From positions 1 through 64,000 of the IMG/VR virus record IMGVR_UViG_3300012665_000990: a DNA stretch of 64,000 nucleotides. The stretch is one strand, 5' to 3'. The notes below the pieces were generated by a model. The model did not search any database and was not told the DNA's origin. It worked only from the letters and a program-made list of their open reading frames with translations. Shown in pieces: positions 13,635-58,967 of this stretch. Numbering within the stretch: the stretch's first letter is position 1; every line of letters begins with the position of its first letter. The position numbers and the translations under genes were made by a program. The DNA is from a virus. Its lineage: Duplodnaviria > Caudoviricetes.

Positions 13635-13642
13635 TATAAATA
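13635..13642 (+). promoter_or_regulatory. T4-type late promoter
   Basis: Exact TATAAATA 5 nt upstream of SOD ATG. Confidence 0.6.
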
Positions 13643-13647
13643 CAGAC

Positions 13648-27661: not shown

Positions 27662-27729
27662 TATATACAGTTTTTCCCAAAATCACTATAAGCGTTCTGG
27701 AAATAAATATATGAACGGGGCAGAATTTT

Positions 27730-30700: not shown

Positions 30701-30747
30701 TCATATATTTGAACTTCTACTGGTGGCGTATTTCGCAGGTAAATTAA
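27730..30747 (+). CDS. Virion fibre protein (1005 aa)
   Basis: Same gp9-like N-terminus NDGTGEDLRSAFFKVNSNF; TSRTINGVSFNGSANI and DASTKAYVD fibre repeats; poly-Gly hinge. Confidence 0.78.
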   Translation: MTIQYINVGTNANDGTGEDLRSAFFKVNSNFQYLAGLGGETNAGQNIGSGSGIYATKSGTLLQFKSLVAGAGVSITPDTSVITISSTAAQPNTISRIVGNSGSWDITQPNSTLQILGTPGSKATTSVSGNQVYITSNFSIVEDAIPTLGANLDLNEFDIGNIGTDSDEPTVGNINIAGYILANTLTIGRPLPGQPNPGTVTLNASLTVGGATQLSSLDATSINVSGGTLTASTITATSINAATIGNVIGSSNIYGTLVGNINSLYDDAIEVLNTDGPNATFTGNVIGSISGNITGSLVSPGLNLNNSTISGIGNITITGNSSSPIVPFTVVSNYRSPPADPTLPRALEDGPLSAVFAVQQQDTFGFNEAIRLRSYQTNGTQGKFLGAGVMFESINTINNNTIPDLDPEYIFHGFVSMQTYTDPDWSDFVVRTRTNVPLQEFDVLVASGDGRIHASGITINANIISNRLLNYSNFFTSNNPVELDLILTNYASGKYVNFYDAYKFPKTIGSPGQVLTVPAPGSNLLTWTTPSGGGGGGGGATYFVNLLDVPQTYLPSDAEKLVRVNSTYDGLEFASNITATVTGSLVGNASTATILETSRTINGVSFNGSANITFGTDSVSEGTTNQYYTDTRSRNSVSVTPSKALTYTAITGVFDLAESTASTGDTLVKRDASGKIHALTVYTDTLSVDAALSITVANNLTGSFDVNTSGVVSATNFVTTGTGDPTIESAGKIILDPATYIDVSGSKISNLATPTANTDASTKAYVDTAISTVDTAAVKSNIYTADSGGPITVTKGSTLTVEGGTNITTSASSNKITVNLDSTLSNISISGNLPATGNITSSAGYLKAGNIKIDGDAVTQTQTSTDLNLVPGLGGAVAIASYFNLVGTTMAVTGYDTLVIPADSTPVQVDLTTNLTFVRTLDWTGGVGGLANAQIGAGREGQIKTIILETRGVYGDALDTRPRYLVLSGNINGASRVVNIGTVDPNGSATFIYLNFYWWRISQVN

Positions 30748-33700
30748 TGATTTTACTAACATCCGTCCTTAGACCAGCTTGGCAAACACCAAAAGGAGAC
30801 TTAGGCAGTTTTGCACAAAGCATTGCAATAGCACCTATTTCGCTAACTGCAACTAACACTTCAAGATATGAAATATTATCAGGTAGTTTACCAACGGGAT
30901 TAAAACTTAATAAAGATTCGGGAAGAATTGAAGGCACACCTATTGATATTAATATCAGTAGAACTTATGAGTTTGTTGTTAGGGCTAGCAACTTTTCAGG
31001 CATTGGTGGCGCCAAAGTAGTTCAAGACAGAACATTCACTATAACAATATTGAGTGGTGTTGCCCCAGTATTGTTAACTCCTGAAGGATATTTGAATATT
31101 GGTTATAATAATGAAAATTATGTACTTAATGATAGTACAATTAATTTCCAATTTCAAGCATCAGCAACCAGTATACCAGTAGGTCAAAAATTAAAATTTT
31201 ATGTAGAAGAAGGTACTAGTAACTTACCTCCTGGATTAAAATTAAGTAGTAGTGGATTATTATATGGCACTATCAAAGACGATTTAGAATTAGATTATAA
31301 AATTGTCAATGGTGCATATGATAAAGATTATTATGATATGAACCCATATGATTATGGGGCAATAGTTGAACCTGCTACAGCAATTACAGAAGTCACTAAC
31401 GGACAAATTAGTAATATAACACTAACTGCTAGTGGTTATGGATATCTCCTAAATCCAGAAATAATTATTGGTGGAAGCGTAGATGCTGTAAGTGTTATTA
31501 CATCGGGACTAAACTATACAGTTGCTCCAGAAATTATTTTTAGTCCAAGTCCAGTTGCTGGCGGAAGAACTGCCAAAGGATATGCAGTACTTGGTGATAT
31601 CTTTGGAGCCAATGGCACGACACAGACAACAATAATTGATGGTGAATATAGTTCTAATATTGCAGACCAAACAATTGACGGTGGCACTGCATTTAGTACA
31701 GCAGATGATTTTGTAGATGGCGGTGCCGGAAATGTTATCATTTATAACGTCACTGGAAAAGGTGTTGTAGAAATTGTAGTAACTGACCCAGGAACAGGCT
31801 ACACATCTCCACCAACTGTTTATATTAAAGAAAAAGATGGCGGTGCTGGTGCAACAGCTGACTGCTTGCTAATATCTGGCAGTGGTGCTGTTATTACTGC
31901 GCATGTCACAAACGGTAATGTTGTAGAATTAGAAATCGTAAATCCAGGAGCAAATTACGATATACCCCCATTGATTAGTTTTGGATTACCAACTGTCGGA
32001 CCAAAAATTCTAAGCAAAACATATCGTTTTAGTGTAACCGTAAGCAATGGCGAGTTGACTGACACTAAGACATATTCTATTATTGTTAACAGTGAAGATT
32101 CTTTAAGAGCTGACACTACATTTATTAGTTCTGACAGCGTTGAATATGATTCAAGCAGTACATACGTACAAGCACCAATTTGGATTACTGGCAGTGTATT
32201 GCCAACAGTCAAAGGTAATAATAATATAACAATTGATTTGGACATATTTGATCCAACACCAGACGTTGGCGAGATAGAATTTACTCTAATGCCAACTAAT
32301 TTTGACGGAAGTTTAAGTCAGTTTGGTCCAATTGATATTAATTCAACATTAGAAGCACCATATAATAGATTCTTAACATTGGATCCAATTGGTGGAGAAA
32401 TAAGTGGACTGGTTCCTTATCAACCAGCAGTTACTAAAGACTATGTATTCACTGTTAAGTGTGCAAGAATTATTGATGGTGAAGAAGCAGTAACCACCTT
32501 TAAACAATTCTTAATGACAGTTGAAGGAAATATTCAAAGTAAGATATCATACATTACTGACCAAATTGTTGGAACACTGACACCAAACGAACAAAGTTTG
32601 TTAAAAATTGTAGCTAGCAGTTCACTACCAAGTGCAAGTGTTAACTATCAACTAATACCTGGCTATGGCACAACTAAAAAACAAGATTATGTTGAACTTA
32701 CCCTAAGTGAAAGAAATGGTCGTGTATATGTTGAAGGCTATGGAATTTCTCCAACACTAATTTTAGAAAAAGGTCAAGCATATAAGATCAACGTTAGTTT
32801 AATCAACTTTTCGGCTAGTTTTAGAACATTAAATGATGATTATTATAGTCTTGGTTTACGACATAGTGATAATACTATTGGCAACGCCGCACAAGAAAAG
32901 AACACTGGATATTTTATTTTTAATGTACCATTTGATGAGTCAGAAAAAATAAAATTACATTATTCTAATACTAAAAAAGATGGGTTGTTTGTAATATTAA
33001 ACAAATATGACGAAATAACAAACGCTTGGGAAAGACAAGAATTTAAATCGTTCTTCAATGACTACGATGCAACTACTTACTATGAAGGTAATGAAGCCTA
33101 TGCATATTTCTTAACAGGCAATAAAATACAATTTACTACTAAGAAGTATAATACAGTCACACGTTCTTGGGAAATAATTAATATTCCTACACAAAAATCT
33201 TTAATCCCTATTCAAGGTGATTTGTGGTTAGATTTAGAAAATAGTAATTTTGGTGTATTAGAGTATAGATACATAGTTGGTACAACCAGTGCGGCATGGT
33301 TTTCTGTTCAACCACCAGTGGTAACAATAGTTCCTGATAATTCAGTTGGCACAAACGGTAGTTATGTTGCAGTTAATGATATTAACGGTGTTTATGATAT
33401 CTATAGACGTATAAACGGTCAATGGAAAATACTTGAAGTTTTAAAATACAATGTTAAATCAACATTTGATCCAAATATTTTCTTTAAACCACATATTAAG
33501 TCTGAACCAATTACTAATTTGGAATATGACATATGGTGGAAGTATACAACCCCATATGATGGATTTGATGACGAGACTTTAATTACTATTAGAGAATTAG
33601 GTAATATTCCAAGTGAAATAAGTCTTTCTTTAGATGGTGAGATTGTTGGTAAAATAAGTCCAGGAAATACTTATGTTTATAGAAGTATATACAAGGGTAG

Positions 33701-34922
33701 CACACAGTACACATTAAATGATGTAATAACATTTAATGACGATTTGTATGTGTGTATTAACCAACACGTAACTTCTGGATTATGGTTAACAGATAGAGAT
33801 AACTGGAGTTTATTCACATTCCCTAAAAAAATTACAACGTCTATAGATCAAAACAAATATGGTTCAAATAGTTGGACGTTAGATGCCAATGAAACTACGA
33901 TAGATGGAAAAATTAGATTTAGAGTACGTGCTAAAGATAGTCAAAACGTAAGTTATGCTGATAAAGATTTTGATATCATTTATAACAATAATACCAACAA
34001 GACTCTAACAAACATATACTTACAACCATTCCTAGCTAAAACTTCTAGGGATTTGTATTTTAACTTTATTACTGATCCAAATATTTTTATTAACGACTAT
34101 CTATATCGTTCAAATGATACAAGTTTTGGTGTACAAAGAACTCCTAAAATGTTATTGTTAGGCGGGATCGAAAGTACACTTGCGGAAAGATATGCATCAG
34201 CAGTTGTTAAAAACTATTATGATAGACCATTATATTTTGGAGATATCAAAACTGCTGTTGCTAAGACACCAGATGGAACAACGGAATACGAAATAGTTTA
34301 CGTTGAAATAGTTGATCCTTATGAAATTAACGGCATCAGTGTAAGCGAGCAAATTAAATTACCATTTAATTACGATATACTATCAACTGACTATAGTAAA
34401 ATTAGAGTTGACGAATCAACTATGGTAAATGATTTAAGTAAAAATCCAATAGGGTTAGATACTATATTTCCAAGTAGTATCACACTGATGCAAAAAGAGT
34501 TAGAAAATGTAACTTTAGAAAGAGTTGGATCATTTGCGGCGGTTCCACAAGCAAACATTGAGGATTGGGGTGGAATTTTAGACGTAGCATCGTCTGATGA
34601 CGACTGGGGTCAAGTTGCTGAACGTGTGTTTATAATTGATGATTTCTTACTAGTTATTGAAGCATTAACAAAAGATAACAAGTTTAGACCACTATGGATG
34701 AATACTAGTCAAGACGGTTCAGGAGTTCCTGTTGGATTCACAAAAGCAGTTCCAATTTGCTATGTGAAACCTGGTTATAGTGATAGAATCGTAAGTATTA
34801 TTAAGAAATCGGGGTTCGATTTCAAACAGTTAAACTTCACAATTGATAGAATTATAATTCAAAATCCACAGGGAGTTACTGGTGATAAATATATTAAGTT
34901 TACTAACAGAGAAATTATATGA
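30747..34922 (+). CDS. Baseplate wedge-like structural protein with Ig-like repeats
   Basis: LPTGLKL..SG.I.GTP cadherin/Ig-like repeats; GxGYTxPP repeats; large size; structural cluster. Confidence 0.65.
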   Translation: MILLTSVLRPAWQTPKGDLGSFAQSIAIAPISLTATNTSRYEILSGSLPTGLKLNKDSGRIEGTPIDINISRTYEFVVRASNFSGIGGAKVVQDRTFTITILSGVAPVLLTPEGYLNIGYNNENYVLNDSTINFQFQASATSIPVGQKLKFYVEEGTSNLPPGLKLSSSGLLYGTIKDDLELDYKIVNGAYDKDYYDMNPYDYGAIVEPATAITEVTNGQISNITLTASGYGYLLNPEIIIGGSVDAVSVITSGLNYTVAPEIIFSPSPVAGGRTAKGYAVLGDIFGANGTTQTTIIDGEYSSNIADQTIDGGTAFSTADDFVDGGAGNVIIYNVTGKGVVEIVVTDPGTGYTSPPTVYIKEKDGGAGATADCLLISGSGAVITAHVTNGNVVELEIVNPGANYDIPPLISFGLPTVGPKILSKTYRFSVTVSNGELTDTKTYSIIVNSEDSLRADTTFISSDSVEYDSSSTYVQAPIWITGSVLPTVKGNNNITIDLDIFDPTPDVGEIEFTLMPTNFDGSLSQFGPIDINSTLEAPYNRFLTLDPIGGEISGLVPYQPAVTKDYVFTVKCARIIDGEEAVTTFKQFLMTVEGNIQSKISYITDQIVGTLTPNEQSLLKIVASSSLPSASVNYQLIPGYGTTKKQDYVELTLSERNGRVYVEGYGISPTLILEKGQAYKINVSLINFSASFRTLNDDYYSLGLRHSDNTIGNAAQEKNTGYFIFNVPFDESEKIKLHYSNTKKDGLFVILNKYDEITNAWERQEFKSFFNDYDATTYYEGNEAYAYFLTGNKIQFTTKKYNTVTRSWEIINIPTQKSLIPIQGDLWLDLENSNFGVLEYRYIVGTTSAAWFSVQPPVVTIVPDNSVGTNGSYVAVNDINGVYDIYRRINGQWKILEVLKYNVKSTFDPNIFFKPHIKSEPITNLEYDIWWKYTTPYDGFDDETLITIRELGNIPSEISLSLDGEIVGKISPGNTYVYRSIYKGSTQYTLNDVITFNDDLYVCINQHVTSGLWLTDRDNWSLFTFPKKITTSIDQNKYGSNSWTLDANETTIDGKIRFRVRAKDSQNVSYADKDFDIIYNNNTNKTLTNIYLQPFLAKTSRDLYFNFITDPNIFINDYLYRSNDTSFGVQRTPKMLLLGGIESTLAERYASAVVKNYYDRPLYFGDIKTAVAKTPDGTTEYEIVYVEIVDPYEINGISVSEQIKLPFNYDILSTDYSKIRVDESTMVNDLSKNPIGLDTIFPSSITLMQKELENVTLERVGSFAAVPQANIEDWGGILDVASSDDDWGQVAERVFIIDDFLLVIEALTKDNKFRPLWMNTSQDGSGVPVGFTKAVPICYVKPGYSDRIVSIIKKSGFDFKQLNFTIDRIIIQNPQGVTGDKYIKFTNREII

Positions 34923-45405: not shown

Positions 45406-46254
45406 ATGAAAGACTATTATAAGACTCTCGGCGTTCCTCGAAACGCATCACCAGATGAAATTAAAAAGGCCTACAGAAGCAAGGCAATGAAACATCACCC
45501 TGATCGAGGCGGTGATGAAAAAGTATTCAAAGAAATTAACGAAGCACATGATATACTAAGTGATCCACAGAAAAAATCTATGTTGGATCAAGGAGTAGAT
45601 CCGCTGAATCCAAATCAAGGCGGATTTGGTAATCATGAATTCCATTTTACTACAGGCGGGATGGACGATATATTGCGTGGCTTTGGATTTAACTTTGGAT
45701 TTGGACAAGGACCAAGTTTTCAACAACGCCAACAACCAAGAAATAAATCTTTAAATGTTAATCTAACAATTAGTTTAGAAGAAGCATTTACGGGTGTTGA
45801 AAAAACAATTGAAATACAATATCCAACTGGACGTAAACAAATGAATATTACAATTCCTAAAGGAGTTGATAATGGTATGGCCATTCGTTATTCAGGAATG
45901 GGTGATGATTCAATTAGAAATATCCCTGCTGGAGATTTAACTATTAGCATCAATGTAATGCCACATCCTAAGTTTGCTAGAGAAGGTTTAAATCTTTTAA
46001 CAGATTCAAATATTGATTGCTTTGATGCAATTCTTGGTACTTCGGTAGATATTAGGACATTAGACGGTCGTGTGCTACAATTAGTTGTGCCAGCAGGAAC
46101 GCAAAGTGGAACTACTTTAGGATTGCGTAATGAGGGTATGACAGATCAAGCAGGTAATATTGGTAGGCTGTATGTCAGAGTAAATGTACAAATTCCAACT
46201 GATTTAGATTCAAATGCTATTAACATGGTTAAACATATTAAGGGTATCAAGTAA
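45406..46254 (+). CDS. DnaJ-class co-chaperone (no Zn finger, CbpA-like)
   Basis: DYYKTLGV, HPD motif, G/F region, C-terminal substrate-binding domains. Confidence 0.92.
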   Translation: MKDYYKTLGVPRNASPDEIKKAYRSKAMKHHPDRGGDEKVFKEINEAHDILSDPQKKSMLDQGVDPLNPNQGGFGNHEFHFTTGGMDDILRGFGFNFGFGQGPSFQQRQQPRNKSLNVNLTISLEEAFTGVEKTIEIQYPTGRKQMNITIPKGVDNGMAIRYSGMGDDSIRNIPAGDLTISINVMPHPKFAREGLNLLTDSNIDCFDAILGTSVDIRTLDGRVLQLVVPAGTQSGTTLGLRNEGMTDQAGNIGRLYVRVNVQIPTDLDSNAINMVKHIKGIK

Positions 46255-46763
46255 TGTTGAAAATTGTAAAACATCCAGACCCTATTTTAGAAGAAGTAAT
46301 GCCAGCATTTGATTTTGCTAATCCAATTATGGATCCCAAGCAATTGGAAACAGAGATGTTAGCAGTAATGTTTGCACATGACGGAATTGGCCTTGCCGCA
46401 CCTCAAGTGGGAATTCGAACAAGAGTTTTTACCATGGGCCATATATTAATGAAAGAACAAAGTAATGCGTACTTTAATCCTGAAGTAGTTGATGCTAGTA
46501 CTGATTTACTTGATATAGAAGAAGGGTGTTTGAGTTTCCCAACAGTTTTTGTTAAAATTAAACGACCAAGTTGGATTGTAGGTAAGTATTTTGATAGCGA
46601 AGGCAACGAGCATCAAAATAAATTTGAAGGATATGATTGTAAATGCTTTTTACACGAGCTTGATCATTTAAACGGCATCAATTTTAAAGATAGACTTTCT
46701 ACTTTAAAATGGGCCATGGCAGTTAAAAAATCTAAGAAAGTCAAAGTGAGGAACTATGCTTGA
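46254..46763 (+). CDS. def: Peptide deformylase
   Basis: GIGLAAPQVG, EEGCLS, HELDHLNG. Confidence 0.96.
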   Translation: MLKIVKHPDPILEEVMPAFDFANPIMDPKQLETEMLAVMFAHDGIGLAAPQVGIRTRVFTMGHILMKEQSNAYFNPEVVDASTDLLDIEEGCLSFPTVFVKIKRPSWIVGKYFDSEGNEHQNKFEGYDCKCFLHELDHLNGINFKDRLSTLKWAMAVKKSKKVKVRNYA

Positions 46764-49032
46764 ACCAAATGAAGAGTTAGAAGGTATTTTTGAACGTGCT
46801 GTATTGTTGGCTATCGAAAATAAACATCAATATATTACGTTGGAACACTTTCTACTAAGTTTAGTAAGTGATGAAAAGTTTGGCAAAAAGCTAAATGATT
46901 TTGGTACCGATGTTACAGATTTAAAATTAAATTTGACTAGTTACATTGCAAATGAATTGTCAACTATTGTTAATGAAAATCAAAGTAGCAGACCAAAGAA
47001 AACAAATAGTATTGAACGTATGTTAAATCGTGCGTTTACACAAACATTGTTTGCTGGCCGTACTACTATTGAACCTATTGATTGCTTCTTAAGCATATTG
47101 CATGAAAAGAAAAGTCATGCACATTACTACTTGCGTTTGGCTAAGATTGATAAAGACAAATTTGTAGAGTTTATCAATCAGGAAAACAACACTATTGAAA
47201 ACGGTGAAGAAGCGACTATCCCAGAAAGTAAACTAGAAGCAGTTATTAATAATTTCTGTGTTAACTTGAATAACAGAGTTAAACAAAAGAAAATCGATCC
47301 AGTTATTGGTCGTGAAAAAGAAATTGAAGAGATTCAACTTGTATTGGCACGTAGACACAAATCAAACGTAATGATGATTGGTGATCCTGGTGTAGGTAAG
47401 ACTGCGATTGCTGAAGGTCTTGCTCGTAACATTGTTGAAGGCAAAGTACCAAAGTTTATCGAAGACCACACAGTCTATACATTGGATATCAGTGCGTTAC
47501 TTGCTGGCAGTAAGTATCGTGGTGATTTTGAAGAAAGACTAAAGACTGTACTAACTGCTATTGAAAAGAAAAAGAAAGCTATTCTATTCATTGACGAAGC
47601 ACACATGATGAATGGTGCTGGAGCAAGCAGTGGTCAAAGCAATGACATGGCTAATATGTTAAAACCAGCATTGGCCAAGGGCGGCTTTAAAGTTATTGCC
47701 AGTACTACATGGGAAGAATTCCGCAAGCACTTTGAAAAGGATCGTGCCCTAATGCGCAGATTCCAACGTGTTGTAGTTGACGAGCCAGATGAGGAAACAG
47801 CAATTAAGATCCTTACAGGACTTAAGAAGTATTACGAAAAACATCATGGTGTCAAAATTACCAAACAGGCAATTATCGACAGCGTCAAGTATAGTATCAA
47901 GTACATGAGTGATAAGAAGTTGCCCGACAAGGCAATTGATATTATTGATTGTGCATGTGCTCGTTTTAAGATACGTGACGAAGAAAATGGCACTGTTGAT
48001 CATGACGAAGTAGTTTATGAAGTTGCTAAAATGACTAACTTGCCGTTAGAGCAAGTTGCGGCTAAAGAGACTAAGAAACTTACAAACTTAGAAGATAGTT
48101 TGAAAGCAGAAGTGTTTGGTCAAGAAAATGCCATTGATACATTGCTTGATAAAATTTATATTGCTCAAGCAGGACTTAAATCAGTCAACAAACCAGTTGG
48201 TAGTTTCTTGTTTGTAGGTCCCACTGGTTGTGGTAAAACTGAAACTGCTAAACAGCTGAGTGACAAAATGGGAATTAAACTTGTACGTTTTGATATGAGT
48301 GAGTTCCAAGAAAAACACGCAGTGGCAAAGTTTATTGGTGCACCTCCAGGATATGTTGGCTTTGAAGACAATGCTGGACAATTGATTACTACATTACAAG
48401 AAACACCTAACTGTGTATTGTTATTAGATGAGATTGAAAAAGCACATCCTGATGTTGTTAACGTAATGTTACAATTAATGGATAATGGATTCGTAACTGG
48501 CAGTAATGGTAAGAAAGCAGATGCACGTAACGCCATTATTATCATGACCAGTAACTTAGGTGCCGCAGATAGTGAAAAGAAAAACATTGGCTTTGGCAGT
48601 CAAGAAAAGTTAAGCGAAACTGATACTGCTGTTAATGCGTTCTTTGCTCCAGAGTTTAGAAATCGTTTAGACGGTATTATTAAGTTTAAGAAACTTGGTC
48701 ATAGTGTAATGCTCAAAGTTGTTGACAAGTTTGTGCGTGAAATGAACGAACTAATTTCTGATAAGAATGTGTTTGTACAATTAACAGACGTTGCACGTGA
48801 CTATTTGGTTGAACAAGGATTTAACAGTAAAATGGGCGCACGTCCATTACAAAGAGTAATTGATGATAAAATTAAGAAGCCATTAAGCCGTGAAATACTG
48901 TTTGGTCAATTACTTAACGGTGGAATTGTTAAAGTTGACAAAACAGATGATGGTTTAGTATTTGATTATTTAGATCCTCTACCCGTAGCATTAGAGCCAG
49001 AGGTAATTGAAGATGTCATTTCGGAAGATTGA
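46756..49032 (+). CDS. clpA: ATP-dependent Clp protease ATP-binding subunit ClpA
   Basis: Two AAA+ modules (GDPGVGKT, GPTGCGKT), KYRGDFEER, MGARPL; no ClpB middle domain. Confidence 0.93.
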   Translation: MLEPNEELEGIFERAVLLAIENKHQYITLEHFLLSLVSDEKFGKKLNDFGTDVTDLKLNLTSYIANELSTIVNENQSSRPKKTNSIERMLNRAFTQTLFAGRTTIEPIDCFLSILHEKKSHAHYYLRLAKIDKDKFVEFINQENNTIENGEEATIPESKLEAVINNFCVNLNNRVKQKKIDPVIGREKEIEEIQLVLARRHKSNVMMIGDPGVGKTAIAEGLARNIVEGKVPKFIEDHTVYTLDISALLAGSKYRGDFEERLKTVLTAIEKKKKAILFIDEAHMMNGAGASSGQSNDMANMLKPALAKGGFKVIASTTWEEFRKHFEKDRALMRRFQRVVVDEPDEETAIKILTGLKKYYEKHHGVKITKQAIIDSVKYSIKYMSDKKLPDKAIDIIDCACARFKIRDEENGTVDHDEVVYEVAKMTNLPLEQVAAKETKKLTNLEDSLKAEVFGQENAIDTLLDKIYIAQAGLKSVNKPVGSFLFVGPTGCGKTETAKQLSDKMGIKLVRFDMSEFQEKHAVAKFIGAPPGYVGFEDNAGQLITTLQETPNCVLLLDEIEKAHPDVVNVMLQLMDNGFVTGSNGKKADARNAIIIMTSNLGAADSEKKNIGFGSQEKLSETDTAVNAFFAPEFRNRLDGIIKFKKLGHSVMLKVVDKFVREMNELISDKNVFVQLTDVARDYLVEQGFNSKMGARPLQRVIDDKIKKPLSREILFGQLLNGGIVKVDKTDDGLVFDYLDPLPVALEPEVIEDVISED

Positions 49033-50123: not shown

Positions 50124-50214
50124 TTCATATCCCATTACGTTACAAATAAATACATGATAGATTACTGTCATGTATTTTTGCGTTTCAGTCAAATTAAAAT
50201 GGGTCATATAAATT

Positions 50215-50571
50215 ATGTTTTTAAGAGAATTTTTTAGTCAAAACACAAGCGTTGATAAAGAAGAAGAATCCAGTGAGGAACTATGTAAAGACCTCATGGC
50301 ATATATCTTAGATCATGATGACCTTCATAAGAAATTAATGATCCCTATTCTTAACGATGTTAAGAAAGAAATAGCAAACAAAACATACGACAAGAAAACA
50401 GCCTATAAAAAGTATGACGAACTAGTTGATACAGCCTGTGTAATGTTTTATAAAGATGAAAAACTACAGGGCGACCCAAATAAATTATTCCCTGCCCCAT
50501 TAAGAGTTAAAGTTGCTCGACAATTGGCCCAAATTAACCAAGAGAGTCATAAAGAGCATGAGGATAACTGA
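50215..50571 (+). CDS. Hypothetical protein (MFLREFF leader)
   Basis: First gene of the leader-bearing cluster. Confidence 0.65.
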   Translation: MFLREFFSQNTSVDKEEESSEELCKDLMAYILDHDDLHKKLMIPILNDVKKEIANKTYDKKTAYKKYDELVDTACVMFYKDEKLQGDPNKLFPAPLRVKVARQLAQINQESHKEHEDN

Positions 50572-51574
50572 ACTTTTTGAGGGCGGTTGGGACACTACTA
50601 AAACTCAACAAACTGTATTACATCCAAAGATAGTCAGTGTGGCTCTCAAGGTAGTAGATCAGTTTGTTTCTGATTTCAACAACTATCTAAAAAAACAAAA
50701 TATCCCTCCAATTAAACGTGGAAAGCCTACAGGTAGTAGTGCTTATCATGAACAAGACTCGGTTGAGAGACCTGATGTTATATATGGCGATATTGATTTA
50801 CAAATGATTGGTAATCCTGTAGAAGGATTAACGTATGGTCAATTTACTAGTTATTGGAATGATCTTGCAGACAAATTTGTTACAACAATACATCCGCAAT
50901 ATGTAGACACTAGTGAAAGCAAACCAGGACATCCCATATTTCAAGTTGGTCAAGATCAATACGTACAAGTTGATTTTATGTGGCATGAAGAAAAGATGGC
51001 AGAATGGGGTGCGGCACGTGTAACACCAGAACGTGGAATGAAGGGATTGCTAATGGGCAATATGTTTAGTGTGTTAGGTGAACTGCTAAACATGAGTATT
51101 CAACACGCAGGCGTTCAATTAAAAACAGTAAATGGACAACAAGTACCATTTAGTAAACAAAAAGGTGTTGAAGTTCAAACTCTCAGTATTAACCCAAGAA
51201 CGTTTGTATACGATATCTTCAATTACCTACATCAACAAATTTTAGGTACACCAGCTAAAAAAGTTGATCCTCTGTTAAAACAATTTCCAGGTAACAATAT
51301 TGACGATGTTAAAATTGCCACTATGGTAAATGCTGTTAAAGGCTTTGCTCGTAGTTGCGAGCTAAATCAGATGTTTGGGCAGGGCGCATTAGAGCCATAT
51401 GCTAGTGCAGATGATTTTTTACAAAAGTTTTTAGCACGATACGATGAGAAAGCACAAATTGACATTGCAGGTAAGAAGCGTGACAAAGCAACAACCCCCG
51501 AAGCAATTGCTCGTGCAAATGCAGATCGTGAAAAGATACAAGGTGGTTTAGATATAGTTAAGGGGTTATTTTAA
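50558..51574 (+). CDS. Pol-beta-superfamily nucleotidyltransferase-like protein (MRITELFE leader)
   Basis: PTGSS...YGDIDL plus later VQVDF; start at ATG 50558. Confidence 0.6.
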   Translation: MRITELFEGGWDTTKTQQTVLHPKIVSVALKVVDQFVSDFNNYLKKQNIPPIKRGKPTGSSAYHEQDSVERPDVIYGDIDLQMIGNPVEGLTYGQFTSYWNDLADKFVTTIHPQYVDTSESKPGHPIFQVGQDQYVQVDFMWHEEKMAEWGAARVTPERGMKGLLMGNMFSVLGELLNMSIQHAGVQLKTVNGQQVPFSKQKGVEVQTLSINPRTFVYDIFNYLHQQILGTPAKKVDPLLKQFPGNNIDDVKIATMVNAVKGFARSCELNQMFGQGALEPYASADDFLQKFLARYDEKAQIDIAGKKRDKATTPEAIARANADREKIQGGLDIVKGLF

Positions 51575-52413
51575 TGCGTATTAATGAATTATTATTTGAA
51601 GCAGGGAAAAGACTTGCTAGTCAAGGTATTGAAGTGTCACGTGTTAATAAACAAGACTTTTTAACTGCCAAAGGCGCACTTGACCCTATATTAAAGAAAG
51701 CAGGCATTGTTGGTGGTTGGACTGCTGGCGGTGCTGGAAGTTTTGATCCAGAGCACCCATATGGTGGCGGTGGCAGAGAAGACAGTGGTGACATTGATAT
51801 TATGATTGATCCACAAAATTTAACAAAACAATTTCCTCCAGACATAGAAGCATATAATTCTGCCAGTGCTAAACCAATTGGTCCAAAAGCAATGGCAAAT
51901 GTTCTAGCAGATCCTGCTAAAAAAGCAAAATTAGAAATGAGTTCAAGTAAATGGGCATTAGCTGATTACATGAGCAGAAGTGGATTCCGTACTGACCCAG
52001 GAACACTAACTGTTGAATATGGTGCAGGTGGTAAAACATTTTCAGTAGACTTAATTGTGCGTCCAAAAGAATCATGGGAACTACATACACATGACTTTGC
52101 TAAAGATACAACAATGCGTGGTGGCGATTTATGGATACAGATGTATCCAGTACTGGCTAAACTTGCTAGCCAAAAAACTTTTATTGATCCAAAGACAGGT
52201 GAAGAAAAAGGCAACTTGCAGTTTAGTCCAGACAGAGGCCTAGTAGATAGAGATACCAATCAAGTCATTGCTATTAAGAAAGATGACATTGCTAAAATAC
52301 TATTAGGACCACAAGCAACTGCTAGAGACTTAGCCAGCATGAGTGGTATTAGAGCCGCACTAGCAAAACAGCCGCAAAAGTTATCCCAATTACCCCAACA
52401 GCAAACACAATAA
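51574..52413 (+). CDS. Pol-beta-superfamily nucleotidyltransferase-like protein (MRINELLFE leader)
   Basis: GAGS-x13-GDIDI plus later FSVDLI. Confidence 0.6.
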   Translation: MRINELLFEAGKRLASQGIEVSRVNKQDFLTAKGALDPILKKAGIVGGWTAGGAGSFDPEHPYGGGGREDSGDIDIMIDPQNLTKQFPPDIEAYNSASAKPIGPKAMANVLADPAKKAKLEMSSSKWALADYMSRSGFRTDPGTLTVEYGAGGKTFSVDLIVRPKESWELHTHDFAKDTTMRGGDLWIQMYPVLAKLASQKTFIDPKTGEEKGNLQFSPDRGLVDRDTNQVIAIKKDDIAKILLGPQATARDLASMSGIRAALAKQPQKLSQLPQQQTQ

Positions 52414-52423
52414 ATATAACATT

Positions 52424-54319
52424 ATGTATTTGATAGAACTTTTTACACCATCTCGCAAAGCAATTATGGAAGGCATTGACCATCCAGAAGACCTTATTAT
52501 CTCTCAAGGTAGTACAGGTGCAGATCGTGTTCTAAAAGATTTAGCAAGTTTACAAACAGATCCAAGTACAGTGAGTGTTAAATGGGATGGATTCCCTGCC
52601 GTTGTTTTTGGTCGAGATGAAAATGGTAGTTTAGTATTCATGGACAAGCACATGTATGACAAAGTTGTCAAAGGTGCTATGAGTTTTATGAGTATTAAAG
52701 ATTATGATATATCACGTGATGCAAATCGTGGCGACTTGTGGGAAAAAGAAAGTGTACTAAGACCAGCATTAGAGAAAGCTGTACCAAATGTAAAAAATCA
52801 ATTTTGGATGGGTGATCTAATGTGGACTGGAACTCCGCCAACAAGTGATGGTTATTTTGTATTCAAACCAAACACAGTTGAATATCGTGTACAAATAGAT
52901 GACGGCAAGGGAAATAGTTTAGGTGACAAAATTGCTAGAAGTATTGGCGGTATTGCTGTACACACATATATTCCTGGTATTGGTTCAGGTGATCAACCAT
53001 TAGTAGGATTAAAAGGTTTATCAGAAGATACAGGTGTTGTATTTTTGGTTGGTGAAATGAAAGACAAACCACGTGTCGGAATTAACACAGACCTATTAGC
53101 AGAAACACAAACTATTATTAATAACCATAGAACAGATGTTGATGAGTTTATTAAAGATTTAACAGCAATGAAGGGCAAGGCAGTTATTACTGCTATGGGC
53201 CCTTTCATTACACGTATGCTGGAAGAGAACGATATACAAACTAATATAGTTCCACGCTTCTTAGAATTTTTAAAAGAACGTTTAAATGAAACTGCACAGG
53301 CAAAATTCTTAGGTGCTAATAAAGATGGCTGGTTATATCAAGAAGGTCAAGGCGGACCAGGCTTACTAGGCATTTGGACCATGTGGGCCGCCATTGTTGA
53401 TTTAAAACTGCATATCAAACAACAAATTGATACACAGCAACAAGGTAGTGAAGTTATTGCTATCACTGACGGACTAAATGCACACGAAGGTTATGTGTTT
53501 GGTGCAGGTAAAGACAAATTAAAATTAATTGATCGTTTAGGATTTAGCCGTGCTAACTTTGCTAAACATAAAGTACCAGATGAAGAGATTGCACAAAAGA
53601 GTAAAATGCCTTTGGCAACATTCTGTTTTGGTCGTATGAACCCTCCTACAATGGGTCACGGTTTAGTAATGAACAAGACTATTGAGGCGGGTGGTGAAAA
53701 TTCTTTTGTATTCTTAAGTAATAGTGTTGGTACTGATGATCCATTAGATCCAAATACAAAAGCACAATTCATTGCACAAATTTATCCAGAAGTTGCTAGT
53801 CATATTGTAACTGATTACGTACAAGGTCCAATTTATGCGGCTAATTGGTTATACCAAAAAGGTTATCGCAACATGGCATTTGTTGCTGGCAGTGATAGAC
53901 TAGGCAAAGAAAAAGGCAGTATTGAAAAATTATTAACTAGTTGGAACAGTGGTCCTATTCGTAGCACGGATCCAGCTGGAGCACGTGAACACGTGGTTAT
54001 GCAATATATCAGTGCAGGTCAACGTGATGCTGATGCAGAAGGTGTAGAAGGTTACAGTGGAACTAAAGCTCGGCAAGCCGCAGTTGCTGGCAACGAACAA
54101 CAATTCCAACAATTTACTGGTGTTGGTAATGATGTTATAGTTAACGGAAAAACTTTATACCAAACAGTAAGAGAAGGTTTAGGAATTAAAGATCAAGCGC
54201 AAAAACCTGCGCCAGTACAACAAAAACAACCTGTGCAACAACCTGCACAACAAACACAAGTTACTAAAAAAATTCCTGGTAAGGCACCAGCCAAAGTAGG
54301 AGCAGAGGAACAACTATGA
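52424..54319 (+). CDS. Fusion of ligase-fold (DUF6267-like) domain and HxGH-type cytidylyl/adenylyltransferase-like domain
   Basis: SVKWDG, GDLM, HEGYV, LKLIDR (ligase motifs I/III/IV/V-like); FGRMNPPTMGH and VAGSDR Rossmann motifs. Confidence 0.65.
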   Translation: MYLIELFTPSRKAIMEGIDHPEDLIISQGSTGADRVLKDLASLQTDPSTVSVKWDGFPAVVFGRDENGSLVFMDKHMYDKVVKGAMSFMSIKDYDISRDANRGDLWEKESVLRPALEKAVPNVKNQFWMGDLMWTGTPPTSDGYFVFKPNTVEYRVQIDDGKGNSLGDKIARSIGGIAVHTYIPGIGSGDQPLVGLKGLSEDTGVVFLVGEMKDKPRVGINTDLLAETQTIINNHRTDVDEFIKDLTAMKGKAVITAMGPFITRMLEENDIQTNIVPRFLEFLKERLNETAQAKFLGANKDGWLYQEGQGGPGLLGIWTMWAAIVDLKLHIKQQIDTQQQGSEVIAITDGLNAHEGYVFGAGKDKLKLIDRLGFSRANFAKHKVPDEEIAQKSKMPLATFCFGRMNPPTMGHGLVMNKTIEAGGENSFVFLSNSVGTDDPLDPNTKAQFIAQIYPEVASHIVTDYVQGPIYAANWLYQKGYRNMAFVAGSDRLGKEKGSIEKLLTSWNSGPIRSTDPAGAREHVVMQYISAGQRDADAEGVEGYSGTKARQAAVAGNEQQFQQFTGVGNDVIVNGKTLYQTVREGLGIKDQAQKPAPVQQKQPVQQPAQQTQVTKKIPGKAPAKVGAEEQL

Positions 54320-55536
54320 AAATCACACAAATAATTGAACATAAAAAAGGTGTTCGTGCAGTTAAGGCAACTGTTAAGCCAAGAAACTTTGTTGCTAAAA
54401 ATGCAATTCAAAGTGGTGCTGGGGCACACAAAGATAAAAAGAAAGCAGCCAAACAAGGTGATGTTAAGCACAAAGCCCAATCAGTTGCAGAAGGTATTGG
54501 CGATACAATTTCTACCGTTGCTACAAAAGTTGGCGATGCACTAGCAGGTGCTTTACCAAAAGAATATAGACCTTTTGATAATGATACTGCCGCTAAAAAT
54601 CAACAATCAATGAAAGTGGCTAAAAACGAAAGCAATGCCGAGTACGATGATGAAGCTGGTATGGCTGACAACAATCTTGAAACACTTCGTCGTGCCGTGG
54701 ACGGCATTGACGATGTTATCAATGCAGGCGATAACTTGCCTGAATGGTGTCAAGAAAAGATTGCAGTGGCTAAATCAATGTTAATAGCAGTGTGGGATTA
54801 TATGCGTTCAGAAGAAGAACGTGGCGTAAACGAACAAGTTGGTACCTATTCTAGCAGTAATATGCAAATGTCAGTAGACGGTGCTAGACAACTAGCTACT
54901 ACAGATTTACTTAGAAAAAAATACGGAGACAATTTCCAAGATAAACCAGGAAATGGGATGCACTATAATCAAGAAGTCAAAACAATAGCTGATCCTAAAA
55001 ACCCTGGGAAATATCACTCAACGGTAACATTAAAACCAAAAGATTATACGCTATCACCAAATATATCAGCAAGACCTAGCATGGATCCTAATCAAGACTT
55101 TGATTATTTCCATAAAGGTGAACAACTAAAATCAGATCATCCACTTTTTAATAAAGTTAAGCAGATGCACATTGACAGTTTAAACCCTGTGGCTGAACCA
55201 GATGTAAAAGAATCAAGAATGACAGAAGTATCACGCAACCCAGATACAATGAGCGCAACTGATTATGACCGTTACCAACAAGGTCAAATGGACCAACAAA
55301 AGCGCAATTTCAAACGTGACGAAATGGAACACGAACTTGGCGACGAAGATCGCGGAATGTATTTTGTTGTGATTGCCAAGAATGGTAAATGGGAACATAC
55401 TAAGGCGCAGCCTAGACAAGAAGGTATGAATGCCGCACAAAAAGTAATCAATGCATTACACGCCAAATATCCTAGTATGCATTTAGGTATGCAAGGACCA
55501 GACGGCAAAGTATATAATATGGGTAAAGGCAAATAA
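54316..55536 (+). CDS. Modular probable internal-head protein (MKITQIIE leader)
   Basis: YDDEAGMA..NLPEWCQEKIAVA module; recurring hydrophobic-x-E sites. Confidence 0.55.
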   Translation: MKITQIIEHKKGVRAVKATVKPRNFVAKNAIQSGAGAHKDKKKAAKQGDVKHKAQSVAEGIGDTISTVATKVGDALAGALPKEYRPFDNDTAAKNQQSMKVAKNESNAEYDDEAGMADNNLETLRRAVDGIDDVINAGDNLPEWCQEKIAVAKSMLIAVWDYMRSEEERGVNEQVGTYSSSNMQMSVDGARQLATTDLLRKKYGDNFQDKPGNGMHYNQEVKTIADPKNPGKYHSTVTLKPKDYTLSPNISARPSMDPNQDFDYFHKGEQLKSDHPLFNKVKQMHIDSLNPVAEPDVKESRMTEVSRNPDTMSATDYDRYQQGQMDQQKRNFKRDEMEHELGDEDRGMYFVVIAKNGKWEHTKAQPRQEGMNAAQKVINALHAKYPSMHLGMQGPDGKVYNMGKGK

Positions 55537-55537
55537 G

Positions 55538-55972
55538 ATGGACAAGTATCAATTAGCTCTTAAAACAGCGTTTGCAAGTGAGTATGCATTTGCAATCAAA
55601 GCACAAAACTTTCATTGGAATGTAGAAGGTTCTCTGTTTCCACAACTACACGAGTTGTTTGAAAAAATTTATACAGAAGTTTATGGAAGCATTGACACTT
55701 TTGCAGAGCAATTACGTGCATTACAGATATATGCTCCCGCTAGTTTACAAAAATTTAGTATGCTATCAGTAGTTGAAGATGAAAACGAAATCCTTGAGCA
55801 AGGCGCTATGGTTGGTGAGCTATTAGATGATAGCGAAAAAATGGCTAACATTTTTAAATTAACATTTAGCATGGCTGAACAAGCTGGTGATCATGGGTTA
55901 AGTAACTTTTTAGCTGATCGTCAAGACGCACATAAGAAACACAGTTGGATGCTACGTAGCACGTTAAAATGA
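55538..55972 (+). CDS. dps: Dps/ferritin-like protein
   Basis: FHWNVEG..F..LHELF, DTFAEQLR, HKKHSWML. Confidence 0.92.
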   Translation: MDKYQLALKTAFASEYAFAIKAQNFHWNVEGSLFPQLHELFEKIYTEVYGSIDTFAEQLRALQIYAPASLQKFSMLSVVEDENEILEQGAMVGELLDDSEKMANIFKLTFSMAEQAGDHGLSNFLADRQDAHKKHSWMLRSTLK

Positions 55973-56257: not shown

Positions 56258-56911
56258 ATGCGTATAACTGAATTATTAGAAACTGTTGCCAAAAAACCTG
56301 AAGAAGTGGATCAGTCCAATCTAGCCACTATACAGGGAAATGTTTACGGTAATGAAAGCGGTTATGGAAAGGCCGATACTACTAAACCAAACTATGCTGG
56401 TGCTTTAGGTCCAATGCAAATACTACCTAGTACATTTGACTGGATGAAACAAGCAAAGATAATTCCAACTGAATATGATATCAATAATCCTGATCAAAAT
56501 AGAGCGGCAGGCGATGCATTGTTAGGACACTATCATAAAAAATATCAAGGCGACCCTGCAAAAGTATATGCGGCGTATTACGCTGGCCCTGGAGCAATAA
56601 ATAAAGATGGAAGTATTAATACTCACTGGAGAGATTTAAAAAATCCCAAAGCACCAACTGTAGGACAGTATATTGAAAAAGCAATGGCTAGAAGTGGTGG
56701 CAACACTAATAGTTTTATGGCGTCAATTAATAATGCGCCAAGTGCTGTTAAAGATTACGTTAGTTCAACATATGGTAGTATCAAAGACTTTGTAAGTTCA
56801 ATGTCAAGGCCAGAAACAACGTTTGATCCAGAAGAAGAAAAACGTAAAGAAGAACTTAAAAAGAAACGCAAGGCATTGGCAGCATTAAAGGCGCAAGGAA
56901 AGACAGCATGA
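56258..56911 (+). CDS. SLT-type lytic transglycosylase (MRITELLE leader)
   Basis: NESG (catalytic Glu), GALGPMQILPSTF, AAYYAGPG. Confidence 0.82.
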   Translation: MRITELLETVAKKPEEVDQSNLATIQGNVYGNESGYGKADTTKPNYAGALGPMQILPSTFDWMKQAKIIPTEYDINNPDQNRAAGDALLGHYHKKYQGDPAKVYAAYYAGPGAINKDGSINTHWRDLKNPKAPTVGQYIEKAMARSGGNTNSFMASINNAPSAVKDYVSSTYGSIKDFVSSMSRPETTFDPEEEKRKEELKKKRKALAALKAQGKTA

Positions 56912-57267
56912 GAATTAATGAATTACTAATTGAAGGCGGCAAATTACGTGCTAGTCAAGAAAACCCAATCAGCAGATTACAAACATTCAATGCACTAAAC
57001 ATGTACAATGGTGACGGATATAAAGCATATCGTTTTGGCGTTGCACTTGCAGGATCGCCCGATGTTAATGTAGAAAACGAAAGTCCATTTGCTGGTGACT
57101 ATACAGTTAAAAGTTATACTGATGAAGAACAAGAAATGATTAATCATGCGGCAAAACAATTAGGTATCAAGGGCTCTACAAAAGCTGGCAATGGCAGTTT
57201 AGAACCTAAAGGCACCAATACTGCTAGTCCAGTAGCAACAATTAAAAAGAACAAATACGGCGTATAA
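56908..57267 (+). CDS. Hypothetical protein (MRINELLIE leader)
   Basis: YKAYRFGVALAG, SLEP..TNTASPV. Confidence 0.65.
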   Translation: MRINELLIEGGKLRASQENPISRLQTFNALNMYNGDGYKAYRFGVALAGSPDVNVENESPFAGDYTVKSYTDEEQEMINHAAKQLGIKGSTKAGNGSLEPKGTNTASPVATIKKNKYGV

Positions 57268-57268
57268 T

Positions 57269-57853
57269 ATGAAGATACAAGAAATTCTATTAGAATTTGA
57301 ACTCCCAGGTGCTCTTAGAGATATACCAGTTGCTAATATATTTGGTGCAACACTCACTGCTGGCCAAATTTCTGATGCAATTCCAGGTGCTGATCCAAGA
57401 ACTGTAATCAAATACGGTAAACAAATTAACGATATTATACAAACTAATATAACACCAAATTATACTGTAGGTAGTGCTATTGCTGATATCGCAGTTGCAT
57501 TGCCAATTGGTCGTGCAATTAAAGGTGCAAAAACTGCAACTCAAGCTACAAGTGCATTAGGCGGAGTTGCCGCAAGAAGAGAACTTGGCAGAGAATTAGC
57601 AAGTAATGTTACACTCATGCCAGGAATGTCAAACTCTTCAGGATCTAAAATTGAACCTGCAAATCAGCAACCAGTTAAAAAGAAAAGAAAAAATGTTGGT
57701 GAAGTTATTCCTGTTCCAATTGGTGGGAAACAGTATAATCTACCAATTATAAAAGTATTACCAAGTTCTGGATACATAGTTGATGCAAGCAAAGTTCCTG
57801 GTAAAAAACCAGGCGAAACAATAGATGCCCCAGAACCAGAGGATAAACTATAA
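57269..57853 (+). CDS. Hypothetical protein (MKIQEILLE leader)
   Basis: Coupled ORF. Confidence 0.65.
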   Translation: MKIQEILLEFELPGALRDIPVANIFGATLTAGQISDAIPGADPRTVIKYGKQINDIIQTNITPNYTVGSAIADIAVALPIGRAIKGAKTATQATSALGGVAARRELGRELASNVTLMPGMSNSSGSKIEPANQQPVKKKRKNVGEVIPVPIGGKQYNLPIIKVLPSSGYIVDASKVPGKKPGETIDAPEPEDKL

Positions 57854-58098
57854 TGCGTATTCAAGATTTATTAGTAGAAGCAGGTAGTGAAGGCGGTACT
57901 ACTACCGCATCATTAGGTCCAGCTAATCCTACTGCTAATTTAAGCCCAGGGTCAGCCCGTGGAAAGAAAAGTTATTTAGGTAGTCCAGGATCAGGGTCAG
58001 GAACTAAAGCACCACCACAGCCAAAGCCAAAAAAGCAAAAACCAACAGATAATGCCCTAGATGGCGATAGTATCTTTGGCACACCGCAAAAACGATAA
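57853..58098 (+). CDS. Low-complexity protein (MRIQDLLVE leader)
   Basis: G/S/P/K-rich; coupled ORF. Confidence 0.6.
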   Translation: MRIQDLLVEAGSEGGTTTASLGPANPTANLSPGSARGKKSYLGSPGSGSGTKAPPQPKPKKQKPTDNALDGDSIFGTPQKR

Positions 58099-58118
58099 AT
58101 AAAGTATCGGAGATTATT

Positions 58119-58967
58119 ATGCCATATAAAACAGCCAAACAGAAAAAAGCAATTGATGCGGCGGCACATAATCCAAAAATAGCTAAAAATTTAGGGATCA
58201 ATATGAAAGATGCAAAGAAAATGTCAGCACATGGCAAAGGACAGAAGTTTAATGAGACTCAAGAAGATCCTCCATTTGACGGTCCGTATTCTAAAGCAGG
58301 AGAAGTTAAAAAAGATCGCTATGGTAACATAATTAAAGATAAAAATATTGCTAAACATTTAGCAAAGAAAGGAAGAGCTGAAGTGGAAAAGACAACAGAC
58401 ACAAAAGTTAAAGAAGCAGTAGTTACTTCTGGTCCACATAAGGGCAAACAATGGAGTCCAAAAACTCCAGGGCCAACAAATCCAAATTTTAAAGATGACG
58501 GATCGATGGGGCCAAGTGATGGAGCCACTGCGCCACCTCCAGGATATAAACCACCAAAACCAAAGTCAATGAAGAAAGCAGAAGTTGGTAGTGATACAGC
58601 AGTAGCAGTAAATGATACTGATGATCAAGAACTAACTGCAAGTATGGAACACAAAGGTAAAAAAGTTAAAGAAGCCAAAAAGAACGATGGTAATTTAGCT
58701 AATAATGCTAAACCATATGACAAGGTCACACGCGGTGATGTTATTGCTGGTCGTTTAGGTAAAGACGAAATGGGCGGTAAGAAAAAGAAAGTCAAAGAAA
58801 GTACAGAAGCTCAATTACTACGCATTGCTAAACAAGCAATGGATACAGTTAAAGCGTTGAGAGAAGCTAAACAAGAAGCGGCACGTATTAAACACATGCC
58901 AATTTCCGAAAGCGATGAATACTTTGCAGGCTTACAATCACGTTTGAACAAACAAATTAAAGGTTAA
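58119..58967 (+). CDS. Basic low-complexity probable internal-head protein
   Basis: TAAATA upstream; three KVKE repeats; NNAKPYDKVTRGDVIAG module. Confidence 0.6.
   Translation: MPYKTAKQKKAIDAAAHNPKIAKNLGINMKDAKKMSAHGKGQKFNETQEDPPFDGPYSKAGEVKKDRYGNIIKDKNIAKHLAKKGRAEVEKTTDTKVKEAVVTSGPHKGKQWSPKTPGPTNPNFKDDGSMGPSDGATAPPPGYKPPKPKSMKKAEVGSDTAVAVNDTDDQELTASMEHKGKKVKEAKKNDGNLANNAKPYDKVTRGDVIAGRLGKDEMGGKKKKVKESTEAQLLRIAKQAMDTVKALREAKQEAARIKHMPISESDEYFAGLQSRLNKQIKG

Follow-up and report, generated by a model that had tools for sequence, protein, structure and literature searches.

We describe a cluster of genes at 50.2-58.1 kb of a 64,000-nucleotide window of viral DNA (positions 1 to 64,000 of the IMG/VR record IMGVR_UViG_3300012665_000990; Caudoviricetes). 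The cluster includes three adjacent genes, here called g1, g2 and g3, whose products are predicted nucleotidyltransferases. On balance, and with moderate confidence, we read it as a packaged, capsid-targeted cassette of nucleotidyltransferases that would act on nucleic-acid ends after entry. The products of g1, g2 and g3 are probably injected internal head proteins, as judged by analogy with phage T4. An earlier note on this DNA had quoted catalytic motifs for the three genes; all of these are present, and their invariance among homologues, which extends to the catalytic Asp and Lys residues, shows that they are not due to chance.

The window is part of a viral record of 73,775 bases with a CheckV completeness estimate of 21%, and every gene in the window lies on the + strand. 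A T4-type clamp loader and a family-B DNA polymerase are recognised on the record by PHROG matches. The same neighbourhood is carried by a complete relative, G001 (322,512 bases, with terminal repeats), whose proteins are 64% (g1), 67% (g2) and 71% (g3) identical to those of the window. Judging from this relative, the window derives from a T4-like jumbo phage with a genome of ~320-350 kb. A nucleotide search of isolate phages with 50.0-55.6 kb gave zero matches. The g3 protein matched 481 isolate-phage records, almost all of them from T4-like marine myophages, e.g. cyanophages, the Pelagibacter phage HTVC008M and the Methylophilales Melnitz phages.

The shared leader and the signs of packaging

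The features of the cluster are as follows (aa, amino acids; pI, isoelectric point).

50146..50152, + strand: ATAAATA late-promoter-like box, 69 nt 5′ of the ATG at 50215, in the intergenic gap 50124-50214
50215..50571, + strand: g0, small acidic protein, 118 aa, pI 5.4, start MFLREFF; precedes g1 or g2 in relatives
50558..51574, + strand: g1, 338 aa, predicted Pol-beta-superfamily nucleotidyltransferase of a new family; leader MRITELFE (aa 1-8); motifs GS60, D78xD80, D139
51574..52413, + strand: g2, 279 aa, predicted Pol X-like nucleotidyltransferase; leader MRINELLFE (aa 1-9); GS56, D73xD75, D159 and an invariant H171xH173D174
52410..52416, + strand: ATAAATA late-promoter-like box, 14 nt 5′ of the g3 ATG
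52424..53572, + strand: N-terminal part of g3 (whole open reading frame 52424-54319, 631 aa); leader MYLIE..IME16, then DUF6267, a predicted RNA-ligase-like adenylyltransferase with a ~115-aa helical insertion (aa 222-338)
53591..54196, + strand: C-terminal domain of g3, predicted HIGH-type (TxGH) Rossmann nucleotidyltransferase, NMNAT/NadM/PPAT-like; disordered Q/P-rich tail to 54319
54316..55536, + strand: g4, 406 aa, leader MKITQIIE; weak DUF7230 / phrog_1359 match over aa 21-56 only
55538..55972, + strand: Dps/ferritin-like protein, without leader (Pfam Ferritin, E 3e-19; phrog_3636); position kept in relatives
56258..56911, + strand: SLT lytic transglycosylase, leader MRITELLE (Pfam SLT, E 1.6e-15)
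56908..57267, + strand: 119-aa protein, leader MRINELLIE
57269..57853, + strand: 194-aa basic protein, pI 9.4, leader MKIQEILLE
57853..58098, + strand: 81-aa basic protein, pI 9.9, leader MRIQDLLVE
58095..58101, + strand: ATAAATA box, 24 nt 5′ of the ATG at 58119
58119..58967, + strand: very basic 282-aa protein, pI 9.8, no Pfam match; residues 180-265 weakly match the PHROG 'cytidyltransferase' family phrog_764 (E 5e-10)

Between 50.2 and 58.1 kb, g1, g2, g3 and five neighbours begin with a leader of 8-9 residues with the consensus M-[RK]-I-x-[ED]-[LI]-[LF]-x-E. The g3 leader begins MYLIELF, and the g0 start is related. A regular expression for the leader was applied to the 73.8-kb record, on both strands and at each ATG with >=40 open codons. 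It matched nine open reading frames (ORFs), every one within 50.2-58.1 kb, and codon-shuffled controls gave a mean of 0.08 matches and a maximum of 1. The codons of the leader vary among the copies (Arg as AGG, CGT or AGA; Ile as ATA, ATT or ATC), which argues for selection at the peptide level.

The end of the leader is also regular. An (L/I)xE sequence closes it at residue 8 or 9 in g1, g2, g4, the SLT gene and the genes at 56908, 57269 and 57853; in g3 such a site occurs twice, at residues 5 and 16, the latter just before DUF6267. The leader behaves as a module. Distant g2 homologues start exactly after the predicted cut at E9, some g1 homologues start with MGGWDT, and where g1 homologues have an extra N-terminal domain the leader stays at the extreme N-terminus, before that domain.

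T4 provides the closest comparison. Its internal proteins have N-terminal capsid-targeting sequences of 10-19 residues that direct them to the prohead core, residues 8 and 10 of IPIII are processing determinants, and in T4 relatives otherwise unrelated cargo proteins have only the capsid-targeting tag in common (PMC9026906). We read the T4 starts from NC_000866: ipII and ipIII both begin MKTYQEFIAE, and Alt begins MELITELFDE. The likeness to the leader described here lies in a short M-K/R start, a hydrophobic pair after an acidic residue and an (L/I)-x-E end, and we interpret the leader as a T4-type capsid-targeting sequence. Cargo genes are in both cases clustered, variable and otherwise unrelated; among relatives of the window the leader-bearing genes 3′ of the cluster core vary, like T4 internal-protein clusters. 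There are also differences. The leader here has just 8-9 residues and its own consensus. Furthermore, the cargo would comprise three nucleotidyltransferase superfamilies and an SLT transglycosylase, whereas that of T4 consists of small basic anti-restriction proteins and an ADP-ribosyltransferase.

One further likeness concerns the 56908 gene. The first ~17 residues of its product, MRINELLIEGGKLRASQ, are a near-copy of the g2 N-terminus, MRINELLFEAGKRLASQ, and the remainder is unrelated. The T4 genes alt.-1 and alt.-2 are likewise partial duplicates of a cargo N-terminus.

The head module of G001 resembles that of T4 in its order: portal, a small leader-bearing ORF, a 337-aa ORF, protease, an ORF in the scaffold position and the major head protein. 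The protease is a Peptidase_S77 prohead protease (E 7e-27; phrog_207, E 9e-59). The small ORF encodes 80 aa in the position of gp67 (4846-5088 of L044, i.e. G001 200001-220000, minus strand) and starts MFLREFIYF; it is unrelated to g0 despite the same start. On the same piece and strand, a 205-aa ORF (10325-10942) that lies ~5 kb from the head module starts MRIHDLIIE. With leader-bearing ORFs in and near this module, the leader therefore marks head-module genes as well.

Late promoters of T4 and of cyanophages have ATAAATA as their core. The window has nine copies of this box versus 31 expected, a threefold depletion, and each of the nine is on the coding strand (2255, 11320, 13636, 27703, 34885, 50146, 52410, 56597 and 58095), mostly just 5′ of start codons. 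Besides the cluster, the box is found 5′ of a fibre-like gene at 27730 and of a superoxide dismutase gene, and the exact T4 late box TATAAATA occurs once in the window, 12 nt 5′ of the latter. This pattern fits a late-promoter core that is avoided elsewhere.

A homologue of part of g3 has been detected in virions. The cytidylyltransferase ORF154 of the T4-like cyanophage S-CREM2 was identified in purified virions by mass spectrometry (3 peptides, 11.2% coverage; PMC10665884). It shares 30% identity with the C-terminal domain of g3 (E 4e-15) and begins MKNFSSFLTE, which is leader-like. The 58119 gene was considered as a relative of ORF154, given its weak PHROG 'cytidyltransferase' match, and was rejected, as the two have no similarity. 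Taken together, the leader, the late boxes, the relative's protease and head module and the virion-detected homologue give support to packaging that is real and indirect. They strengthen a suggestion that the earlier note had made only with an 'if'.

The three predicted enzymes

Sequence and profile searches of PDB chains with g1, g2, g3 and DUF6267 returned chance-level matches only; the assignments below draw on conserved motifs, on profile comparisons and on structure models. The earlier note had proposed nucleotidyltransferase, ligase and Rossmann folds. Models agree with this for g2, which is Pol X-like, and for g3, which is ligase-like and Rossmann; for g1, the motifs and the profile match to g2 point in the same direction.

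The motifs of g2 are GGAGS56, then, after 15 residues rather than the 13 first reported, GD73ID75IM...FSVD159L. Residues G55, S56, D73, D75 and D159 are invariant in 26 relatives with identities down to 29%, and so is H171-x-H173-D174, also in the 29%-identical ones. We know of no counterpart of this HxHD motif in family-X polymerases; it may provide an extra metal site. Sequence searches of Pfam, PHROG and PDB with g2 gave no match, and a tblastn search of isolate phages gave zero matches. An AlphaFold2 model made from the 26-sequence alignment has a mean predicted local distance difference test (pLDDT) score of 88, with values <50 only at residues 1-9. It aligns with the fingers, palm and thumb of Pol beta (Pol beta residues ~90-335). 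The N-terminal 8-kDa deoxyribose-phosphate (dRP)-lyase/DNA-binding domain is absent, the alignments beginning at Pol beta residue 97. The minimal Pol X of the African swine fever virus (ASFV) type likewise lacks the 8-kDa domain.

According to this model, g2 is a member of the Pol-beta superfamily with the layout of a family-X DNA polymerase, and its putative activity would be the template-directed or terminal addition of nucleotides to a primer. The fold matches family X, not the CCA enzymes, CD-NTases or MNT AMPylases that had been named as candidates. The protein also differs from known family-X polymerases (Pol beta, lambda and mu; the Pol X of ASFV and giant viruses). It is 11-15% identical to them and has no Pfam match, the dRP-lyase domain is missing, 15 residues are inserted between GS and DxD, and the invariant HxHD is additional.

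The start of g1 is the ATG at 50558, not an upstream TTG, as the N-termini of homologues confirm. Its motifs, TGS60...YGD78ID80LQM...VQVD139FM, include seven residues (G59, S60, Y76, G77, D78, D80 and D139) that do not vary among 46 relatives with identities as low as 25%. As with g2, sequence searches of Pfam, PHROG and PDB gave no match, and tblastn against isolate phages gave zero matches. A profile comparison of g1 with g2 by hhalign gave an E of 2e-4 at default settings, over the strand of the third carboxylate and the following helix. Permissive local and global settings gave E 9e-6 and 5e-7, with leader, GS, YxxGDID and VD colinear. There are weak leads besides. In the Atlas neighbour cluster of g1, 33% of members have PF01909, and a lenient Pfam scan of the 46 relatives gave only single sub-threshold matches, to PAP_NTPase, Mab-21 and NTP_transf_2. 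Because of the motifs, the profile match and these leads, g1 is a probable distant paralogue of g2 in the Pol-beta nucleotidyltransferase superfamily.

Metagenomic members of the g1 family can be fused to other domains, namely CTP_transf_like (one member), GH19, GGACT, Amidoligase_2 and DUF5661, and some relatives carry a GNAT name from their source annotation (P0243, P0251, P0252, P0270, P0065 and P0071 for the family as a whole). Two further candidates were tested as g1 relatives. The ~350-aa genes 5′ of DUF6267 in HTVC008M and Melnitz are not homologous, and neither is a 337-aa gene found close to a distant homologue of g2.

The g3 protein has the motifs K53WDG, GD131LM, E355GYV and K365LK367, followed by FGRMNPPT409MGH412. 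Pfam matches DUF6267 over residues 18-383 (E 2e-32), and PHROG matches 'cytidyltransferase' families over residues 371-612. The AlphaFold2 model has a pLDDT of 79, with residues 1-16 and 592-631 disordered. Across proteins of S-PM2, P-HM2, HTVC008M and Melnitz (22-23% identity), K53-W-D-G56, G130-D-L132, E355-G356, V358 and K367 are invariant in DUF6267. No ligase match was found for this family by sequence or profile, with Pfam returning only DUF6267 and PDB chains searched. The model does match the fold of the adenylyltransferase domain of RNA ligases, with motifs III, IV and V in order. Given this fold match and the invariance of motifs I (with Lys53), III, IV and V, the best reading of DUF6267 is a divergent adenylyltransferase of the RNA-ligase type that contains a helical insertion of ~115 residues (aa 222-338).

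The Rnl2/Rnl5-type RNA ligases, such as Naegleria NgrRnl (PDB 5cot; PF09414), share with DUF6267 the KxDG of motif I, motifs III, IV and V and the adenylyltransferase fold. They differ in several ways. DUF6267 is below all sequence-model thresholds, its helical insertion lies between motifs IIIa and IV, it has no OB or known ligase accessory domain, and a HIGH-type nucleotidyltransferase is fused or adjacent to it.

This second domain of g3 has a Rossmann fold like that of NMNAT and PPAT. Residues T409, G411, H412, S545, G546 and R550 are invariant in 31 relatives. NMNAT/NadM, PPAT and cytidylyltransferases are alike in the Rossmann fold, in TxGH (as in PPAT) and in ISxTxxR, which SGTxxR resembles; the g3 domain differs in that it does not reach Pfam PF01467 and in its fusion to DUF6267. 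The fusion is also found in S-PM2, whereas in most cyanophages DUF6267 and the transferase are encoded by two adjacent genes (T4-GC 71 and 190). Homologues of the domain are the cyanophage 'cytitidyltransferase' (T4-GC 190, a core cyanomyophage gene) and S-CREM2 ORF154. Some g3 homologues (P0465, P0470 and P0473) have a C-terminal pterin-4a-carbinolamine dehydratase. The literature was searched for DUF6267 and 'cytitidyltransferase' with no result. A 2026 paper that deals with glycosylated hydroxycytosine was set aside, as its nucleotidyltransferase fold differs.

A packaged counter-defence, along the lines that the earlier note had proposed, is an alternative reading. Here, the TxGH domain would remake NAD+ or another adenylylated cofactor drained by abortive infection, and the ligase-like domain and a tailing nucleotidyltransferase would repair tRNAs cut by anticodon nucleases. 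We regard this as quite unlikely.

Proposed function and its alternatives

A DUF6267 gene follows g1 in each of the 25 related loci with downstream sequence. The two are usually adjacent, with ~1 kb between them in two loci, and the linkage holds where DUF6267 is down to 28-43% identical. The g2 gene and the TxGH domain are both present in 13 of the 25 loci and both absent in the other 12. These two sets correspond to two clades, so that the joint presence or absence of g2 and the domain is weak evidence. The genes are arranged as g0-g1-g2-g3 here, as g0-g2-g1-g3 in G001 and as g0-g1-56908-g2-g3 in others. The earlier expectation that all three genes are co-conserved is therefore correct for g1 and DUF6267 (25/25) and too broad for g2 and the HxGH-type domain (13/25).

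We propose the following mechanism, in which cleavage, packaging, ejection and substrates are inferred. The cassette, i.e. g1, g2, g3, the SLT transglycosylase and four other leader proteins, would be transcribed late. The leaders would dock the proteins to the assembling prohead core, and a prohead protease of the gp21 family would remove them by cutting after (L/I)-x-E. The mature enzymes would stay inside the head and be ejected into the host along with the DNA. There, g1 and DUF6267 might work as a pair on nucleic-acid ends, with a fill-in polymerase or terminal transferase and a nick-sealing ligase; this is the least certain step. The candidate substrate is incoming phage DNA, or cleaved host or phage RNA, before any phage gene expression. 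The TxGH domain and g2 would be accessory modules of one clade.

Filling or extending ends and then sealing them is suggested by the strict linkage of g1 and DUF6267 together with the Pol X-like and RNA-ligase-like folds. The match of the g2 fold to family-X DNA polymerases is the reason that gap filling and nick sealing of nucleic acids is the function that we favour, with low confidence. A more specific version, which we consider speculative and rather unlikely, is that the head delivers a nucleic-acid repair kit. This would combine Pol X-like fill-in or end extension, perhaps with ribonucleotides, RNA-ligase-like sealing, and a leader-bearing superoxide dismutase and the Dps-like protein as protectants against oxidative damage, and it would mend the genome or join its terminal repeats before phage expression. 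Pol mu is able to use ribonucleotides. If this version is true, a large genome that was damaged outside the cell or attacked on entry would be mended early.

Could these enzymes modify proteins instead? In this alternative, g1 and/or g2 would be injected NMPylating enzymes for host proteins, functional analogues of T4 Alt. The packaged Alt ADP-ribosylates RNA polymerase and so sets a precedent for enzyme cargo with a capsid-targeting sequence, the source annotation of some g1 homologues calls them GNAT acetyltransferases, and Pol-beta nucleotidyltransferases in effectors of mobile elements are predicted to modify proteins (PMC5512222). However, those nucleotidyltransferases of polyvalent proteins are of a minimal four-strand type from conjugative elements and are not Pol X-like (PMC5512222), whereas g2 aligns with the fingers, palm and thumb of Pol beta. 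Nucleic-acid chemistry also accounts better for the strict linkage between g1 and a ligase-like gene, and we find the alternative improbable.

The polyvalent proteins themselves are a useful comparison for a packaged cassette, since effectors carried inside capsids have been described as having multi-domain architectures (Iyer, Burroughs, Anand, de Souza, Aravind 2017; PMC5512222). The fusions of the g1 and g3 families with lysozyme-like, GNAT, amidoligase, cyclotransferase and pterin dehydratase domains are alike. In contrast, the domains in the window are separate genes with their own leaders, and the catalogued Pol-beta nucleotidyltransferases are minimal and of the conjugative-element type.

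Several observations weigh against a packaged cassette of end-processing enzymes. The DUF6267 proteins of the cyanophages S-PM2 and P-HM2 lack the leader, so that packaging is not universal for the family. Three genes in or beside the cluster, the Dps gene and those at 55969 and 58119, have no leader either. A Peptidase_S77 prohead protease was not found on the 73.8-kb record, which is 21% complete; as it is absent from this fragment, the protease is inferred from the relative. With regard to the chemistry, the strength of the profile link between g1 and g2 depends partly on alignment settings, and NMNAT-like and PPAT-like matches of the g3 C-terminal domain are tied.

The leaderless cyanophage proteins bear on a further alternative, that the enzymes are unpackaged. 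They would then be late enzymes that act in the cytoplasm, in replication, repair or DNA modification, with the shared N-terminus as a tag for a ClpA-like unfoldase or as an amphipathic localisation helix. In line with this, the genes immediately 5′ of the cluster encode DnaJ, a peptide deformylase and a ClpA-like AAA+ protein, clpA is syntenic with the cluster in relatives, and in Kyanoviridae DUF6267 and the cytidylyltransferase are located beside replication genes such as gp41 and UvsX. Against it, the leader resembles the experimentally defined T4 capsid-targeting sequence in length, position and (L/I)xE end, and it is also found on the SLT transglycosylase, a typical ejection-protein activity. 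The leader is present, moreover, on the ORF in the gp67 prohead-core position of G001, and a leader-bearing homologue was detected in virions. We therefore think it unlikely that the enzymes stay in the cytoplasm, and packaged cargo remains our preferred reading.

This work has some wider uses. It offers a structural assignment for three abundant and unannotated phage families, g1 (~700 clusters at 90% identity), g2 (~140 clusters) and DUF6267 (481 isolate-phage records, most of them from marine cyanophages). Should the leader prove to be a genuine capsid-targeting signal, it would become a simple sequence rule that predicts the injected cargo of uncultured T4-like and jumbo phages from metagenomes. 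A virion-delivered pair of polymerase-like and ligase-like enzymes, if true, would be a new class of phage cargo and would add genome or RNA repair to the early take-over functions. The proteins also have biochemical appeal, e.g. the minimal Pol X-like protein, and the RNA-ligase-like domain with a large helical insert that is fused to a HIGH nucleotidyltransferase.

Neighbouring genes and the rest of the window

Among the other leader-bearing genes, the SLT gene at 56258 has several PHROG matches, and an internal virion protein that contains an endolysin domain is among them.

Directly 5′ of the cargo cluster (45406-49032) are genes for DnaJ, peptide deformylase and a 758-aa ClpA/ClpB-like double-AAA+ protein. 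Synteny extends to clpA and the intervening genes in all related loci that are long enough to show it, and G001 has dnaJ and pdf in place too. No ClpP was seen. It is conceivable that these chaperones are linked to the loading or unfolding of cargo.

The superoxide dismutase gene at 13635-14196 encodes an Fe/Mn enzyme (Pfam Sod_Fe_C, E 4e-23). The protein has an N-terminal extension of ~15 residues, MYNFIKNLTE/G, that ends in LxE, and it may be another packaged protein.

Two tRNA genes, for tRNA-Ile (anticodon UAU, unusually long at 92 nt) and tRNA-Leu (UAA), are arranged in tandem at 2377-2608. Three very large ORFs of 2746, 1005 and 1399 aa occupy 19421-34922; these are presumably fibre or virion proteins. 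The first two of them (2746 and 1005 aa) open with a common motif, N(I/V)G.....NDGTG(D/E)..R.AF.KVN.N.

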